Assembly: GCF_024502345.1 (NCBI RefSeq)
Contig: NZ_JALDNN010000001.1
Reading direction: 5' to 3' (one strand)
DNA length: 64,000 bases
Source: Escherichia coli
GTDB lineage: Bacteria; Pseudomonadota; Gammaproteobacteria; Enterobacterales; Enterobacteriaceae
This document shows positions 52,030 to 58,350 of the stretch, piece by piece; the stretch's first letter is position 1, and the number at the start of each line of letters is the position of its first letter. The position numbers were made by a program, and so were the translations under genes. The notes under the pieces were generated by a model. It was given only the letters and a program-made list of their open reading frames with translations. It searched no databases and had not been told where the DNA came from.

Positions 52030-52590
52030 TCAAAACTGAAAGCGCATCCAGGCAAAGTACACATTGCCATTGTTGTAGGTACCCGGAATGTAGGTCATCT
52101 GAAAAGTCACTGGGCCATAACCCACGGAGGCCAATGGCAGTAGAACCGGGAGAGGGATGTAATTCCAGTTATCGCGTGCCGTTACGCCAGCGGTGAATCC
52201 CAGACCTAAATGAAAATTTTCATCCGCCAGCGGTCGCCAGGTACTTTCCCATCCGTATCCGGCAATCGGTTCCCATTTGTTCCACGAGTCCTTAAATGCC
52301 ATGGCATACAGGCCATGCCAGTTTCCTTTTTCATCCCAACGCGACAGGCCAAAACCGCCACCCCACGGTCGCTCGTTATAGCGATCGGTTTTTTCTTTGT
52401 CGTAAGCGAAACGTGCATGCCAGGTGATGGCAGGAATATATAAATCATAATGTTCAGGCTGTTGCCAGGTTTGTGCAATATTTTCTCTAAACGTTGTCAT
52501 CCACTCATCTGCGTTAGCAAAAACTTTACCAACGCTGATTAACTGAATAAAAACAAAGGAAAAGATAGCGACATATTTACTCACGTTCAT
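52030..52590 (-). CDS. pagP: Lipid A palmitoyltransferase PagP
   Basis: 186 aa from internal Met; signal peptide; small beta-barrel. Confidence 0.92.
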
Positions 52591-53075
52591 TTGTGACCAT
52601 AAAACATTTATCAAAAATCTACTACTAGCATAGCAAAGCTACAATTAACATAACCTTAATAGACCCAACATAAAGAATAATCTGAATAGCTGCTCTATTT
52701 ATTTCCGCTTGTTCAAGTTAAATATTTCCGCGCATCGATTAAAGATGATGCGTCGTTTTCTGCGATGGGAATAGTCAAAAAAGAAAAACCAAGTCTTTTT
52801 TGATGACAAAATGCAATCAAGGAAAAATTATTTTATTTTTTAACTAGATACAACAATCATCTTAACGAAGTATATAATATAAATCGTCAACCTATGCTCA
52901 TGTTAGATTATTTTTTGAGCGCACAGCCGCAGCTAACACCATTGCAATTAACAAATTTGCATCAATCCACCATCAATTTACACACATTATTATGTGATAA
53001 TTGCCAACCGCTAAATATGCGTTTTGTTATCTATGTATAAAAACAGCAACTTCAATGTCTTAATGGCAGTTTTTC

Positions 53076-53089
53076 TTGATTTTAATCAG
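53076..53089. promoter_or_regulatory. FNR-like binding site upstream of dcuC
   Basis: TTGATtttaATCAg matches TTGAT-N4-ATCAA at 9/10 positions, ~90 bp upstream of dcuC ATG; dcuC is anaerobically induced. Confidence 0.4.
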
Positions 53090-53178
53090 CATTCATCGCC
53101 AATTTATTGGGCATATTTTTTCCTTAAGCTTTAGGAATTTTTTATTATTTACTTTGGGGCCTGGAGACAGGAAAAATT

Positions 53179-55285: not shown

Positions 55286-56912
55286 TAGGTTTCACTTTCG
55301 GAATATAGATTGAAAATAAGGTACCGCAGGGATCATTATCTTCGAGAGTGATAACACCACCGCAGCGCGTTACATAGCTGGCAATCAAGTACAACCCAAT
55401 GCCATGTTCACCGGGCTCGTCAGCACGCGTACTGACCCCCTGCTCAAATATTTTGTCTCGTAGAGACTCTGGAACGCCGCAGCCCTGATCGGCGACTTCA
55501 ATCACCACATCATCGCCTTCATCGCTGAGGAATAATTCAACGATCTTGTTTCCTTCATCGCTACGCAGGCTGGCTTCGAAGGCGTTATCAAGTAAATTTC
55601 CCACAATGGCGGCAAACTCGGTGCTATCCAGTCCTGGCGGCAGTTGCGAAAGCTGGCTACCGGGGACGATGATCATTTTTAGCCCCAGTTCGCGGGCGCG
55701 CTGAACTTTACCAAAAAGCAGCCCCGCCACCTGGCGATCGGCAAACGCCTCGCGCAGGCTGTCAATAAGCTGTTGCTGGGCCTGAGACTCCCCCTGCACC
55801 ATCGCCAGCACGCGATCATACTCTTTCATCTGCAACAGACCATTGAGCGTCGACATCCAATTGAGATGCTCGTGTCGCAATGTACGAAGGCTCTCGACGT
55901 ATTGTTTTATTTGCGTCAGTTGCGCATTGAGGGTGGAAATTTCGTCTTTACTACGAAAGCTGATAATGGCCCCCAGCAAATCATCACCTGAACGAATAGC
56001 TTCCCGATTGGCAATAACGCTCAGACCGTTAAAGTTAGCCACCACATCCTGACGTTTTTCATCAATCTGTTCGGTAAAGAAATCGGCGGGCCTGACCACT
56101 TCAGCAATGGGTTTACCCAACCATTGCCGTCCGGGGGAACTCAGCCCCAGCATCTTTCTTGCGTTACGATTGATGGCGGTAATGTAACCGTGCGGATCCA
56201 CCGCAATCAGCCCTTCATAAACCGAACTAAACAGCGCCTCTTGCTGACGGACCACGCGTGCGATTTGCTTTGGCTCCATGCCCATCATCTGCCGACGGAT
56301 ATGCGCGGCCAGGAACCACGACAGCAACATCAGAATCCCTAACAGCACGACAAACACACCTGCCATCGGTAATAAAAACTCAGCCCGCCAGCTATCGATT
56401 TTACTCACCAGGTAGCCAATCGACACCACGCCGATGACTTTTCCATCGTCATCAAAGATTGGCGTTTTGGCGCGCATCGCCATACCCATTGACCCTTTCC
56501 CGGTAATGAAGTAGCTCTCCCCTTTCTCCAGCGCGCCCTGTTTGGTGAACTGCATAGGATAACCAATTTTCTCCGGATTAGGATGGTAAAGGCGGATCGA
56601 GTGCCGGTCGCCAATCACCACATAATCAAAATCGGTATCTCTTTGTAATTTGTTAGCGATGGTCGCCAGCCGTTTGTAGTCACGCGTTTTTACTGCGCTG
56701 ATGATACTGTCATTGGAGGCAATAATTTTCGCCTGATTCATTGCCATGTCGCGTACATGAAGCGTTAAATAGTCCTCAAAACTGGCCGTAAAATATTGCG
56801 CCAGGGCTGCAATGACAAATATTGAGAACACCAGAATCAGCAAAAAGATACGCAGCGGAAATGCCAGTCTTTGGAAAAATGCAAACTGTTTATTCTCGTT
56901 AAGCTGCAACAT
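55254..56912 (-). CDS. dpiB: Sensor histidine kinase DpiB (CitA)
   Basis: 552 aa from internal Met (MLQLNENKQFAFF...); periplasmic PAS-like sensor, H-box, HATPase; 3' end overlaps dpiA by 32 nt. Confidence 0.93.
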   Translation of the reverse strand: MLQLNENKQFAFFQRLAFPLRIFLLILVFSIFVIAALAQYFTASFEDYLTLHVRDMAMNQAKIIASNDSIISAVKTRDYKRLATIANKLQRDTDFDYVVIGDRHSIRLYHPNPEKIGYPMQFTKQGALEKGESYFITGKGSMGMAMRAKTPIFDDDGKVIGVVSIGYLVSKIDSWRAEFLLPMAGVFVVLLGILMLLSWFLAAHIRRQMMGMEPKQIARVVRQQEALFSSVYEGLIAVDPHGYITAINRNARKMLGLSSPGRQWLGKPIAEVVRPADFFTEQIDEKRQDVVANFNGLSVIANREAIRSGDDLLGAIISFRSKDEISTLNAQLTQIKQYVESLRTLRHEHLNWMSTLNGLLQMKEYDRVLAMVQGESQAQQQLIDSLREAFADRQVAGLLFGKVQRARELGLKMIIVPGSQLSQLPPGLDSTEFAAIVGNLLDNAFEASLRSDEGNKIVELFLSDEGDDVVIEVADQGCGVPESLRDKIFEQGVSTRADEPGEHGIGLYLIASYVTRCGGVITLEDNDPCGTLFSIYIPKVKPNDSSINPIDR

Positions 56913-57291
56913 TGTTTTCCTTGCGGGTTGTCCCGAGCCTCTTTGACGGATGTAATTAAAATGTTGAATCAAAATACATAGATATTAATTATAATCGTGG
57001 CAAATTTTATTCATTAAATCAATTAAATCACTTAAACCTGCGGGTCATTTCGTAATTACATTAATTAAAAAACTTAAAACCATTAAATAAATAAAAAACC
57101 ACTAACTCTATGTGAAATAAATCAAAATTTCACGCCGAAATACTCCTTAGGATGTATAGCGAAAGGAGAAAAAGATATACCTCAATCACCCCCCTTTCTC
57201 CCAAGTGAAAATAAAAGGTTATCAGTTTGCAACATTGAACAACATTCGTTGCAAATCGATAACAACATGCACCTTCAGGATACTATTTATT

Positions 57292-58350
57292 ATGTTCGGC
57301 AATGATATTTTCACCCGCGTAAAACGTTCAGAAAATAAAAAAATGGCGGAAATCGCCCAATTCCTGCATGAAAATGATTTGAGCGTTGACACCACAGTCG
57401 AAGTATTTATTACCGTAACCCGCGATGAAAAGCTTATCGCGTGCGGTGGAATTGCCGGAAATATTATTAAATGCGTTGCTATCAGTGAATCCGTTCGCGG
57501 TGAAGGACTGGCGCTGACATTAGCCACTGAACTGATAAACCTCGCCTATGAGCGGCACAGCACGCATCTGTTTATTTATACCAAAACCGAATACGAGGCG
57601 CTGTTCCGCCAGTGCGGTTTTTCCACGTTGACCAGCGTACCAGGCGTGATGGTGCTGATGGAAAACAGCGCCACGCGATTGAAACGCTATGCCGAATCGC
57701 TGAAAAAATTTCGTCATCCCGGGAACAAGATTGGCTGCATTGTGATGAACGCCAATCCCTTTACGAAGGGTCACCGTTATCTGATTCAACAAGCTGCGGC
57801 ACAGTGCGACTGGTTGCATCTGTTTTTAGTCAAAGAAGATTCTTCACGCTTCCCCTATGAAGACCGGCTGGATCTGGTGTTAAAAGGCACCGCCGATATT
57901 CCACGCCTGACTGTGCATCGCGGCTCCGAATACATCATCTCCCGCGCTACGTTCCCTTGCTACTTCATTAAAGAACAGAGCGTCATTAACCATTGTTACA
58001 CCGAAATTGATCTGAAGATTTTCCGTCAGTACCTCGCTCCCGCACTGGGTGTAACTCACCGCTTTGTCGGTACTGAACCCTTTTGTCGCGTTACCGCCCA
58101 GTACAACCAGGATATGCGCTACTGGCTGGAAACGCCGACTATCTCCGCACCGCCCATCGAACTGGTTGAAATTGAGCGGCTGCGTTACCAGGAGATGCCG
58201 ATATCCGCTTCCCGGGTACGTCAACTGCTGGCGAAAAACGATCTCACGGCTATCGCGCCGCTGGTCCCTGCAGTCACGCTGCATTATTTGCAGAACCTGC
58301 TTGAGCACTCCCGCCAGGACGCGGCAGCTCGTCAAAAGACCCCCGCATGA
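57292..58350 (+). CDS. citC: [Citrate lyase] ligase CitC
   Basis: 352 aa from internal Met (MFGNDIFTRVK...). Confidence 0.9.
   Translation: MFGNDIFTRVKRSENKKMAEIAQFLHENDLSVDTTVEVFITVTRDEKLIACGGIAGNIIKCVAISESVRGEGLALTLATELINLAYERHSTHLFIYTKTEYEALFRQCGFSTLTSVPGVMVLMENSATRLKRYAESLKKFRHPGNKIGCIVMNANPFTKGHRYLIQQAAAQCDWLHLFLVKEDSSRFPYEDRLDLVLKGTADIPRLTVHRGSEYIISRATFPCYFIKEQSVINHCYTEIDLKIFRQYLAPALGVTHRFVGTEPFCRVTAQYNQDMRYWLETPTISAPPIELVEIERLRYQEMPISASRVRQLLAKNDLTAIAPLVPAVTLHYLQNLLEHSRQDAAARQKTPA

Follow-up and report, generated by a model that had tools for sequence, protein, structure and literature searches.

The dpiB–citC spacer as a shared control region of divergent citrate operons in Escherichia coli

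The spacer between dpiB and citC is the shared control region of the divergent operons dpiBA (= citAB) and citCDEFXGT. It spans 379 bp (positions 56913–57291) of the 64-kb stretch of E. coli DNA that we analyzed, hereafter the window. Its regulatory nature and density are real, but the region is ordinary and was already known. The evidence points to CRP, NarL (through nitrate) and H-NS acting together with DpiA. We consider it highly probable that the spacer functions as an H-NS-silenced region shared by dpiBA and citCDEFXGT, with inputs from DpiA, CRP and NarL and with two predicted promoters.

The spacer is bounded by the ATG of dpiB at 56912 (minus strand) and the ATG of citC at 57292 (plus strand). 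Translation of the plus strand from 57292 yields MFGNDIFTRVKRSENKK..., which corresponds to CitC, and the reverse complement ending at 56912 yields MLQLNENKQFAFF..., which corresponds to DpiB. The RefSeq annotation of matching genomes presents the same two divergent genes, 378–380 bp apart. Relative to K-12, the locus is 98.7% identical over 979 bp, with the same flanking genes in the same orientation. The initial annotation was thus right about the identity of the genes and their divergent arrangement around a 379-bp spacer. The products of dpiBA are a citrate sensor kinase and its response regulator, and citCDEFXGT encode citrate lyase and a citrate/succinate antiporter.

Within the spacer, 374 of the 379 positions are identical to K-12, with a 1-nt indel in a C-run. 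One of the K-12 substitutions, C to T at window position 57080, changes the AAAACC of Block D (see below), which is invariant elsewhere. Window positions convert to K-12 U00096.2 as approximately 651458 + (56912 − window position). The locus was matched at a threshold of at least 95% in 5420 of 5426 complete E. coli genomes and therefore belongs to core E. coli. Because this is a core locus with only 5 differences from K-12 over 379 positions, the K-12 literature is applicable to the spacer.

Composition and conserved blocks of the spacer

The spacer presents a much lower GC-content than the whole window (respectively, 0.314 and 0.509), and only 0.5% of 379-bp windows are equally A+T-rich. It had been described as rich in A/T tracts and short repeats, and both strings quoted in support have a single copy in it (AATTAAAT at 57021, AAATAAATAAAAAACC at 57085). 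The repeats are real: we observed 62, 32 and 14 repeated 6-, 7- and 8-mers relative to 42.2, 14.6 and 4.9 expected from 1000 dinucleotide-preserving shuffles (respectively, P = 0.003, 0.001 and 0.011). In contrast, A/T homopolymer tracts of at least 4 nt showed no excess in the spacer (11 observed vs 11.3 expected), and the richness in A/T tracts therefore reflects composition. Using TRF, a 9-bp tandem of ATTAAATCA was identified with 2.7 copies at 57013–57036. The tetranucleotide TTAA is found at 57014, 57023 and 57032 and again at 57065, 57074 and 57083, forming two triplets with a 9-bp spacing.

We further compared the region across about 40 Enterobacterales. The divergent dpiB/citC arrangement was found in 47 species with A+T-rich spacers of 324–556 bp, and the low GC-content of the spacer is kept across Enterobacterales (21–42%). 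This comparative footprint defines a module of ~210 bp that is nearly devoid of indels. Among 20 genera-level taxa, the mean column identity is 0.89 in the conserved blocks and 0.60 outside. A 150-bp core is present as a single copy 5′ of citC in 64 loci, some of which have another upstream neighbor, and an ungapped stack of 29 taxa retains a TAcGAT −10 and a TGTGA box at a constant offset. The assignment of factors to the conserved blocks rests on conservation, with single-sequence consensus matches at or near chance. The footprint is a compact map of the bases that matter, and it leaves the view of how the system works unchanged. The features of the spacer are as follows:

56913–57291, no strand: whole spacer, 379 bp, GC 31.4%, inside an H-NS-bound region in K-12
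56917–56922, minus strand: dpiB Shine-Dalgarno AAGGAA, 4 nt before the ATG at 56912; TTCCT core kept in the 20-taxon alignment
56951–56966, plus strand: Block A, direct repeat TGTAA-N6-TGTTG (family consensus TGTWA-N6-TGTTT, 11-bp register)
56993–57006, minus strand: Block B, family consensus GATCGTTACAGATT on the plus strand, TGC-CACGAT on the minus strand
57013–57040, no strand: Block C, 9-bp tandem ATTAAATCA/ATTAAATCA/CTTAAACC, conservation 0.91, found by TRF, repeat family D1
57017–57022, minus strand: candidate dpiBA −35 TTGATT, inside Block C and 17 bp from the candidate −10
57060–57102, no strand: Block D, TTAATTAAAAAACTTAAAACCATTAAATAAATAAAAAACC, with the second TTAA triplet at 9-bp spacing; a direct repeat of Block C ~42 bp away
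57111–57126, no strand: Block E, TGTGAAATAAATCAAA, CRP-type box, centre at 57118.5, −41.5 from the predicted citC start
57141–57156, no strand: NarL/NarP-like 7-2-7 element TACTCCT-TA-GGATGTA, overlapping the −10, candidate nitrate-repression site
57148–57153, plus strand: predicted citC −10 TAGGAT (TAcGAT in most taxa), with T1, A2 and T6 conserved
57205–57245, no strand: Block F, GAAAATAAAAGGTTATCAGTTTGCAAC...CAACA, conserved, inside the predicted citC leader
57218–57263, plus strand: leader hairpin with 16-nt arms and a 14-nt loop, 13 nt 5′ of the citC Shine-Dalgarno, inverted repeat I2
57222–57291, minus strand: 3′ end of nog1 (last 23 codons and stop), a published antisense gene with a full span of 57222–57527
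57277–57280, plus strand: citC Shine-Dalgarno AGGA, 11 nt before the ATG at 57292; cAGGA conserved

Regulatory inputs at the citC and dpiBA promoters

Blocks C and D are probably the operators of DpiA (CitB). Relative to the citC start that we predict, Block D occupies about −60 to −100, and a similar sequence precedes the TGTGA box at citC loci of the K. pneumoniae type. EcoCyc annotates DpiA operator sites in the spacer, and a 2025 study used this annotation to design a truncation of the Citrobacter rodentium orthologue. Deletion of all the DNA 5′ of the equivalent of position 57099 abolished citrate induction. The truncation primer of that study matches positions 57099–57126 of the window, and both Blocks C and D fall in the removed segment. 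The C. rodentium PcitC sensor is induced by the combination of citrate, anaerobiosis and glucose, and it still works without its own dpiAB. In addition, a gfp fusion of the segment corresponding to 56844–57203 responds to anaerobiosis and citrate. The annotated DpiA sites, the truncation and this fusion bear out the regulatory role that the initial annotation had ascribed to the spacer. We located DpiA on Blocks C and D because of their conservation, the truncation of the orthologue and the EcoCyc annotation as cited in the 2025 study. With citrate and under anaerobiosis, phosphorylated DpiA would bind the TTAA sequences of these two blocks at about −60 to −150 of citC. Both blocks would overlap or adjoin the predicted dpiB promoter, and DpiA bound at Block C or D may also autoregulate dpiBA.

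Two H-NS regions determined by ChIP-chip in K-12 (650481–652224 and 650239–653919) include the spacer, with as well as without oxygen, and extend over both gene starts. Expression of citC, D, E, F, X, G and T was 3.5–5-fold higher without O2, only in a strain lacking hns and stpA. With its GC-content of 31.4%, its occupancy by H-NS and its dependence on O2 only without H-NS/StpA, the spacer is an H-NS-silenced region according to the K-12 literature. Without inducer, H-NS would coat this A+T-rich DNA and keep both promoters essentially silent, a step that we take as shown in K-12 because of the ChIP-chip data and the derepression observed without hns and stpA. CitR (YbdO) was rejected as a direct regulator: deletion of citR increases citC 16-fold, but the sole confirmed ChIP-exo peak of this protein is citR-ybdNM, and its effect is probably indirect.

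The CRP-type box of Block E presents a single mismatch to TGTGA-N6-TCACA. Four CRP matches with at most one mismatch were found in the 64-kb window relative to 2.1 expected, and the match alone is non-significant. The sequences TGTGAA and TCAA of the box are invariant in 20–29 taxa, and the TCAC right halves found in distant orthologues favor CRP over FNR. The offset between TGTGA and the −10 is 37 nt in all taxa, K. pneumoniae-type loci included. The centre of the box is 29.5 bp 5′ of TAnGAT, which places it at −41.5 if transcription starts at 57160, and we predict the citC start near this position. Since the gfp fusion of 56844–57203 is active, the start is required to be 5′ of 57204. Sites for CRP and CitB have been reported in the citS-citC spacer of K. 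pneumoniae, and both NarL and the cAMP-CRP of the E. coli host are stated to regulate the orthologous promoter. Bound to TGTGA-N6-TCAAA at −41.5, cAMP-CRP would be a class II activator of a weak promoter with TAGGAT and without a −35, and transcription from near 57160 would generate a leader of ~130 nt. Activation by CRP is not easily squared with glucose being, as reported, a required co-substrate.

Nitrate is a strong inhibitor of the orthologous promoter. The NarL-like element contains a perfect left heptamer and a right heptamer matching at 5 of 7 positions, i.e., two mismatches to TACYYMT-NN-AKRRGTA. Such 7-2-7 matches are at chance level in the window (3 vs 2.5 expected). However, conservation extends beyond the −10 (AATACTCCTTAcGAT) and covers the left heptamer more than a −10 would require. 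Binding of NarL or NarP over the −10 at TACTCCT-TA-GGATGTA would account for the inhibition by nitrate.

On the minus strand, we infer that TGC-CACGAT (56994–57002) is a candidate extended −10 of dpiBA. Block B, which contains it, is conserved, yet missing at L033, a citC locus without a divergent gene. The complement of the candidate −35 (AATCAA) is near-invariant, and the spacing shows no gaps in 29 taxa. The operon would be read leftward from this weak extended −10 promoter (TTGATT, 17 bp, TGC-CACGAT), with a start predicted near 56987. A simple sigma-70 scan of the spacer yielded no promoter above threshold, and folding of the dpiB leader as predicted gave nothing notable (z = +0.75). In glucose minimal medium, published sigma-70 ChIP-seq data place no peak in the spacer, which is consistent with an uninduced promoter and provides no positive support. 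Reg-Seq lists dpiBA among its "gold standard" promoters, whose architecture is known, and RegulonDB annotates sites for it.

Block A was found on the plus strand in every one of 41 loci, 159–160 bp 5′ of the TGTGA box, and outside these loci its motif has only 3 matches in about 1 Mb. It is also present at citC loci without a divergent dpiB. A reading of Block A as the CRP site of a class II dpiB promoter was rejected: the start would be 5 nt from the ATG and the motif persists without the divergent gene. The spacing of Block A to the −10 is constant within 1 bp in 41 species.

Two other explanations of these sequences were weighed against the model of DpiA, CRP and NarL acting on an H-NS-silenced region. 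The repeats and the A+T-richness could be devoid of operator function, the spacer being low-GC H-NS-silenced DNA whose motifs arise from composition alone. The coverage by H-NS, the number of A/T tracts at expectation and the individual consensus matches no better than chance agree with such an explanation, as does the neighboring pagP-dcuC spacer, which is as A+T-rich as the dpiB–citC spacer. We nevertheless find it scarcely credible in view of the discrete blocks that stand out from the sequence between them (0.89 vs 0.60 identity), the 210-bp module nearly without indels in 41 loci and a core that is kept 5′ of citC in 64 loci, also with a different upstream neighbor. The repeated k-mers in excess of dinucleotide shuffles and the induction lost upon truncation of the C. 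rodentium orthologue likewise argue against it.

Direct anaerobic control by FNR, ArcA-P or both is the other explanation: FNR would act as a class II activator on TGTGA/ATCAA, and ArcA-P would bind Block A and the minus-strand TGTTR repeats of Block F. In favor of this explanation, the cit operon is induced anaerobically, and Block E, which would be centred at −41.5, has a right half (ATCAA) that matches the FNR half-site perfectly. Block A (TGTAATTAAAATGTTG) presents the direct-repeat register of the ArcA box, 11 bp centre to centre, together with strong conservation and a constant position. However, conservation does not reveal which factor binds, and Block A contains two mismatches, a level commonly encountered in the window, where ArcA-like matches at two mismatches number 63 relative to 44 expected. 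Similarly, 45 FNR-like matches with at most two mismatches were found in the window relative to 34 expected. The sequence GTGAAATAAATCAA differs from TTGAT-N4-ATCAA at two positions and lacks the T of TTGA in its left half, which is of the CRP type (GTGA) in every taxon, and the right halves of distant orthologues are TCAC. ArcA is mainly a repressor in anaerobiosis, i.e., when cit is induced, which counts against its direct action. For FNR, citC, dpiB, citA and dpiA are absent from the ChIP-chip/seq peaks, the predicted sites and the peaks of the hns/stpA-deficient strain, all in glucose-minimal medium (Myers et al. 2013). For ArcA, citC, dpiB, citA, dpiA and citT are absent from the ChIP-seq supplements, which cover anaerobic glucose growth (Park et al. 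2013). Sites of FNR or ArcA masked by the H-NS coverage could have been missed by ChIP. Overall, direct control by FNR or ArcA appears unlikely, and FNR and ArcA, the anaerobic factors named by the initial annotation, received no support from the ChIP tables or from consensus matches at chance. Of the motif scans that it proposed, the one for CRP returned a conserved box with one mismatch, itself at or near chance as a single-sequence match, and those for FNR and ArcA did no better than chance.

The citC leader and the antisense gene nog1

Downstream of the predicted citC start, GTTAT and CAACA of Block F are invariant in 18 taxa, and alignment gaps make its distance to the promoter variable. 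The arms of the leader hairpin are 88% complementary, and its folding energy of −16.5 kcal/mol was reached by none of 200 shuffles (z = −5.0). In the alignment, 82% of the cells are paired, relative to 23–47% when the partners are slid, and three pairs present two-sided changes. The U-G wobbles fit an RNA of the plus strand only. This hairpin is limited to Escherichia and the C. freundii group. RNAalifold found no consensus structure for the leader across 18 taxa, and Rfam returned no match (best scores of 7.7–14.6 bits vs gathering thresholds of 36–80; E-values of 1–9). A first 5′ hairpin (57165–57201) was dropped: its z is about −1 in most single sequences and its register shifts between genera.

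The segment 57205–57291 might instead be coding if citC started at the GTG at 57205. An open frame with this GTG is present in the window, and citC of EDL933 is annotated from the equivalent codon (381 aa). We rejected this start, since the codon is not kept in relatives and the Shine-Dalgarno is found at the ATG instead: no Shine-Dalgarno precedes 57205, and AGGA precedes 57292. In four of the five other Escherichia lineages the extension has no start codon, with a start in E. albertii only at −57, and in most other genera its frame is closed or devoid of a start. Using tblastn, matches begin at residue 1 of CitC in nearly all of 80 loci. RefSeq also places the citC start at the ATG, and the gaps in the alignment of 57205–57291 have lengths that are not multiples of three. 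A role of this segment as N-terminal sequence of CitC is thus very improbable, and we retain the ATG at 57292 as the start of citC.

The 3′ end of nog1 falls within the final 70 bp of the spacer, which the initial annotation had missed. This ORF begins with GTG, encodes 101 aa and is kept intact only within Escherichia, and both its length and its offset from the EDL933 citC annotation correspond to nog1 of Fellner et al. 2015. The nog1 promoter is occupied by sigma-70, lies inside citC near 57567 on the minus strand and points across the entire spacer toward dpiBA. Scans with simple sigma-70 and terminator models yielded nothing useful in the spacer, at the intragenic sigma-70 peak in dpiB or in the nog1 promoter region.

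It is possible, although on balance doubtful, that the conserved blocks reflect more than the inputs of DpiA, CRP, NarL and H-NS and form a rigid nucleoprotein module of ~210 bp. Blocks A and F and the leader hairpin could then mark an undescribed regulator or a looped complex plus a post-transcriptional layer on citC, and the nog1 promoter could be a distal promoter of dpiBA or yield an interfering transcript.

Relation to known citrate systems

The citC-citA(dpiB) region of E. coli K-12 (citCp and dpiBp in RegulonDB/EcoCyc) is the same locus and differs from the window by strain-level substitutions only. The citS-citC spacer of K. pneumoniae, which responds to CitB and cAMP-CRP, likewise presents A+T-rich targets of the CitB family and CRP sites. 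Its divergent partner is citS-oadGAB-citAB, in contrast to dpiBA here, and we drew the comparison through K. pneumoniae-type loci. Two loci without the E. coli arrangement (L033 and L035) present the same order of elements: the TTAATTAAA...CATTAAAACCA block, TGTGA-N6-TCATA and TACGAT at the 37-nt offset. The leader of the L033 type is ~45 nt long and lacks Block F and the hairpin, relative to ~130 nt here. In K. pneumoniae, CRP sites are reportedly located at −41.5 of both citC and citS, and the class II CRP step proposed above agrees with this citC promoter.

DpiA belongs to the same family of response regulators as DcuR, which, together with DcuS, controls the dcuB, frdA and dctA promoters. 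Operators of the CitB family are A+T-rich tandem hexamers of the form (T/A)(A/T)(T/C)(A/T)AA, which resemble the ATTAAA repeats of Blocks C and D with their 9-bp period. A DcuR site is also said to be located in front of citA. The spacer is similar to other H-NS-silenced, activator-dependent promoters in its GC-content of 31%, its H-NS coverage and its dependence on O2 only without H-NS/StpA. In contrast to horizontally acquired H-NS targets, it is a core locus whose low GC-content and specific blocks are conserved across Enterobacterales.

The orthologous promoter is in use as a gut biosensor (2025 study), and the neighboring citT is the gene that was activated in the Cit+ lineage of Lenski. 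The dpiB–citC region is already curated and matters mostly as context: it decides whether E. coli turns on citrate fermentation, and DpiA connects citrate sensing with SOS responses and with the replication of both plasmids and the chromosome.

Identity and composition of the dpiB-citC spacer

Translation shows that the spacer (56913-57291, 379 bp) between the divergent dpiBA and citCDEFXGT operons is bounded exactly by the two start codons: the DpiB N-terminus (MLQLNENKQFAFF...) is encoded by the reverse complement ending at 56912 and the CitC N-terminus (MFGNDIFTRVKRSENKK...) by the frame from 57292. In matching genomes of E. coli, RefSeq annotates dcuC, dpiA and dpiB to one side of the spacer and citC-D-E-F-X-G-T to the opposite side, with 378-380 bp between the two groups. 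A 979-bp query covering the spacer and its surroundings was found with at least 95% identity in 5420 of the 5426 complete E. coli genomes, which indicates that the locus belongs to the core chromosome. Relative to K-12 MG1655, the spacer presents four substitutions and one single-base indel, and knowledge from K-12 is therefore directly applicable. The spacer is the known dpiBA/citCDEFXGT control region, already described, and the initial annotation was right to read it as regulatory and gave its limits exactly.

The spacer is GC-poor relative to the window (respectively, 31.4% and 50.9%), a value as low being reached in just 0.5% of 379-bp windows. The initial annotation also described it as rich in short repeats and A/T tracts. 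The two strings it quoted are present and the repeats are confirmed: 6-, 7- and 8-mers recur more often than in dinucleotide-preserving shuffles (P = 0.003, 0.001 and 0.011, respectively), TRF detects a 9-bp tandem (ATTAAATCA, 2.7 copies; 57013-57036), and TTAA occurs in two triplets with 9-bp spacing (57014/23/32 and 57065/74/83). The A/T homopolymer tracts, however, are no more abundant than composition predicts. The pagP-dcuC spacer (52500-53178) is similarly A+T-rich (31.8% GC), and it contains an FNR-like site with one mismatch (TTGATTTTAATCAG; 53076-53089) that precedes the dcuC ATG (53179) by about 100 bp.

Conserved blocks and candidate operators

Scanning for CitC in one genome per species yielded 80 loci. 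A dpiB homologue lies divergently upstream in 47 of them (spanning Escherichia, Citrobacter, Salmonella, Hafnia, Buttiauxella, Atlantibacter, Pluralibacter, Edwardsiella and Providencia), with spacers of 324-556 bp and 21-42% GC. In a 20-taxon alignment, mean column identity was 0.89 in the conserved blocks (A to F) relative to 0.60 outside. In a profile search, 64 loci each contained a single copy of the 150-bp core, located upstream of citC, and some of these loci lack a divergent dpiB. The features of the region are as follows.

Features of the dpiB-citC spacer
56951-56966, plus strand: Block A, TGTAA-N6-TGTTG
56993-57006: Block B, consensus GATCGTTACAGATT
57013-57040: Block C, consensus TTAAATCAATTAAACAAATAAAAACC
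57060-57102: Block D, consensus TAATTAAaAAAcTtAAAACCATtAA...
57111-57126: Block E (TGTGA box), TGTGAAATAAATCAAA; adjoining conserved sequence AATACTCCTTAcGAT
57205-57245: Block F, downstream part of the spacer (predicted citC leader)
57218-57263, plus strand: leader hairpin with 16-bp arms
57222-57527, minus strand: nog1, 101-aa GTG ORF antisense to citC

Block A was detected at 41 loci, with a constant strand and with the TGTGA box invariably 159-160 bp downstream; off-site, only three copies occur in about 1 Mb. The segment of about 210 bp from Block A to the -10 is thus practically free of indels in these taxa. Block A is retained in a citC locus without divergent gene (L033) and therefore belongs to citC control. 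Its register matches that of direct repeats of the ArcA type, or of another OmpR-family type, without pointing to one factor. The spacers of a Citrobacter MAG (L020) and of Intestinirhabdus alba (L023) reach 514 and 556 bp relative to the usual ~380-390 bp; the additional 125-175 bp, which may represent a small insertion, lie between the dpiB start and Block A, and the module from Block A to the CRP-type box is unchanged. Two loci carry unexpected labels: a 484-bp contig assigned to Terrisporobacter mayombei (L071) shares 99% identity with citC of E. coli and is probably contamination, and a 647-kb contig assigned to Chryseobacterium sp. 18061 (L035) harbors an enterobacterial citC locus (76% identity), probably in a mislabelled assembly.

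A dpiAB-PcitC cassette of C. rodentium tested in an E. coli host was induced anaerobically by citrate together with glucose. It remained responsive without the heterologous dpiAB, and the response was lost when PcitC was further truncated to remove the "DpiA operator sites", whose positions had been taken from an alignment with the E. coli sites listed in EcoCyc. The truncation primer (CATCTAACTCTTTGTGAAATAAATCAAA) corresponds to window positions 57099-57126, and the required DNA therefore lies upstream of 57099. Fellner et al. observed a ~2-fold induction by anaerobic citrate of a gfp fusion of 56844-57203, which places a citC start upstream of 57204. Blocks C and D are mutual direct repeats about 42 bp apart, with (A/T)TTAAA words every 9 bp, and they lie at about -60 to -150, within the segment needed for citrate induction. 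Owing to these repeats and this position, Blocks C and D are the best candidates for DpiA operators, and probably represent them. K-12 MG1655 has a T at 57080, in place of the final C of the AAAACC word of Block D that is present in the window and in the remaining 19 taxa of the alignment; this T is a laboratory-strain variant within a probable DpiA operator.

Block E presents one mismatch to the CRP consensus and two to that of FNR, and neither match is significant alone. All taxa share TGTGA as its left half, and more distant orthologues possess TCAC right halves (e.g., TGTGAATTTGATCACC). CitB and CRP sites have been described in the citS-citC spacer of K. pneumoniae, and the authors of the C. 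rodentium study attributed PcitC regulation to host NarL and cAMP-CRP. The invariant half, the distant TCAC halves and the reports of CRP for the Klebsiella region and the orthologous promoter together favor a CRP-type rather than an FNR box. A TAnGAT hexamer (here TAGGAT, 57148-57153) is conserved 37 nt downstream of the TGTGA start, with an identical offset even in differently arranged citC loci. If TAGGAT is the -10, citC transcription would start near 57160 and Block E would be centered at -41.5, a class II geometry. The CRP box of K. pneumoniae citC is likewise said to be centered at -41.5. Conserved TACTCCT, upstream of and overlapping the -10, is followed by TA-GGATGTA; this arrangement fits the NarL/NarP 7-2-7 pattern with two mismatches and constitutes a candidate site, at which NarL/NarP binding over the -10 would explain the nitrate inhibition described for the orthologous promoter.

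Block B, together with a portion of Block C, contains on the minus strand TTGATT and TGC-CACGAT separated by 17 bp, which would constitute a weak extended -10 promoter with a dpiBA start near 56987. In the citC locus without divergent gene (L033), Block B is absent, consistent with this promoter reading.

The citC leader and nog1

The citC start is annotated at GTG 57205 in EDL933 (381 aa) and at ATG 57292 in RefSeq (352 aa). The GTG is missing in four of the five other Escherichia lineages and, in most other genera, the extension presents no start or a closed frame. CitC protein matches start at the first residue of the ATG-initiated form, and a Shine-Dalgarno sequence is found only before the ATG. 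The segment 57205-57291 is therefore leader, not CitC coding sequence, the whole predicted leader being about 130 nt long.

The leader hairpin is unusually stable in Escherichia (-16.5 kcal/mol; z = -5.0; none of 200 shuffles equally stable). Across 11 distinct sequences of Escherichia and the C. freundii group, pairing is maintained in 82% of cells relative to 23-47% for slid partners, three pairs present two-sided changes, and the U-G wobbles fit the plus-strand RNA only. One of the 11 sequences served to derive the structure, which makes this comparative support modest. We observed no conservation of the hairpin in wider taxa beyond this group and no match to an Rfam family. An exact 10-mer (TGCAACATTG) is found at the dpiB start codon (56905-56914) and again in Block F (57228-57237). 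This recurrence may be fortuitous (~0.1 expected) or may reflect an element of GCAACA type common to both sites.

The nog1 ORF (306 bp) matches Fellner et al. (2015) in length and offset, is intact in Escherichia only, and has its last 23 codons and stop within the spacer. In K-12, a sigma-70 peak is found at 650810, equivalent to ~57561 and 6 bp from the nog1 5'-RACE start (~57567); transcription from this start crosses the spacer toward dpiB.

Published binding and expression data

We placed the spacer at K-12 ~651081-651457 using rna (643420-644226) and gene spacing. H-NS ChIP-chip regions cover it both anaerobically (650481-652224) and aerobically (650239-653919). All seven cit genes are 3.5-5-fold up without oxygen, a dependence restricted to a strain deficient in both hns and stpA. 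The initial annotation expected anaerobic control elements and proposed FNR and ArcA scans, but operators for these regulators find no support: citC, dpiB, citA and dpiA are absent from the FNR tables (peaks, predicted sites and peaks of the hns/stpA-deficient strain) and from the ArcA ChIP-seq supplements. The supported inputs are DpiA, CRP, NarL and H-NS. In addition, dpiBA is among the Reg-Seq promoters of known architecture, and sites are annotated for it in RegulonDB.

Sigma-70 ChIP-seq in uninduced K-12 detected peaks at 650810 and 651823 and none inside the spacer. The latter, the strongest nearby and higher anaerobically, maps to ~56549 inside dpiB (about +363 from the ATG); it could represent an intragenic or antisense promoter, and a simple promoter scan at this position was negative. 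Genomic SELEX with RpoS holoenzyme alone assigned a peak to the citC/dpiB spacer at K-12 651466 (~56904-56912, the spacer/dpiB boundary); for sigma-28, a peak is listed within dpiB at 652632 (PMC5493296). YbdO, a LysR-type regulator currently annotated as CitR, is encoded by citR/ybdO ~14 kb downstream of citC in a matching genome (L002). Deletion of citR increases citC ~16-fold; since the sole confirmed ChIP-exo peak is at CitR's own promoter (PMC9068703), its effect on the spacer is probably indirect.

The new contributions, namely the comparative map and the module with its fixed spacing, constitute a useful refinement but do not amount to a new type of element.
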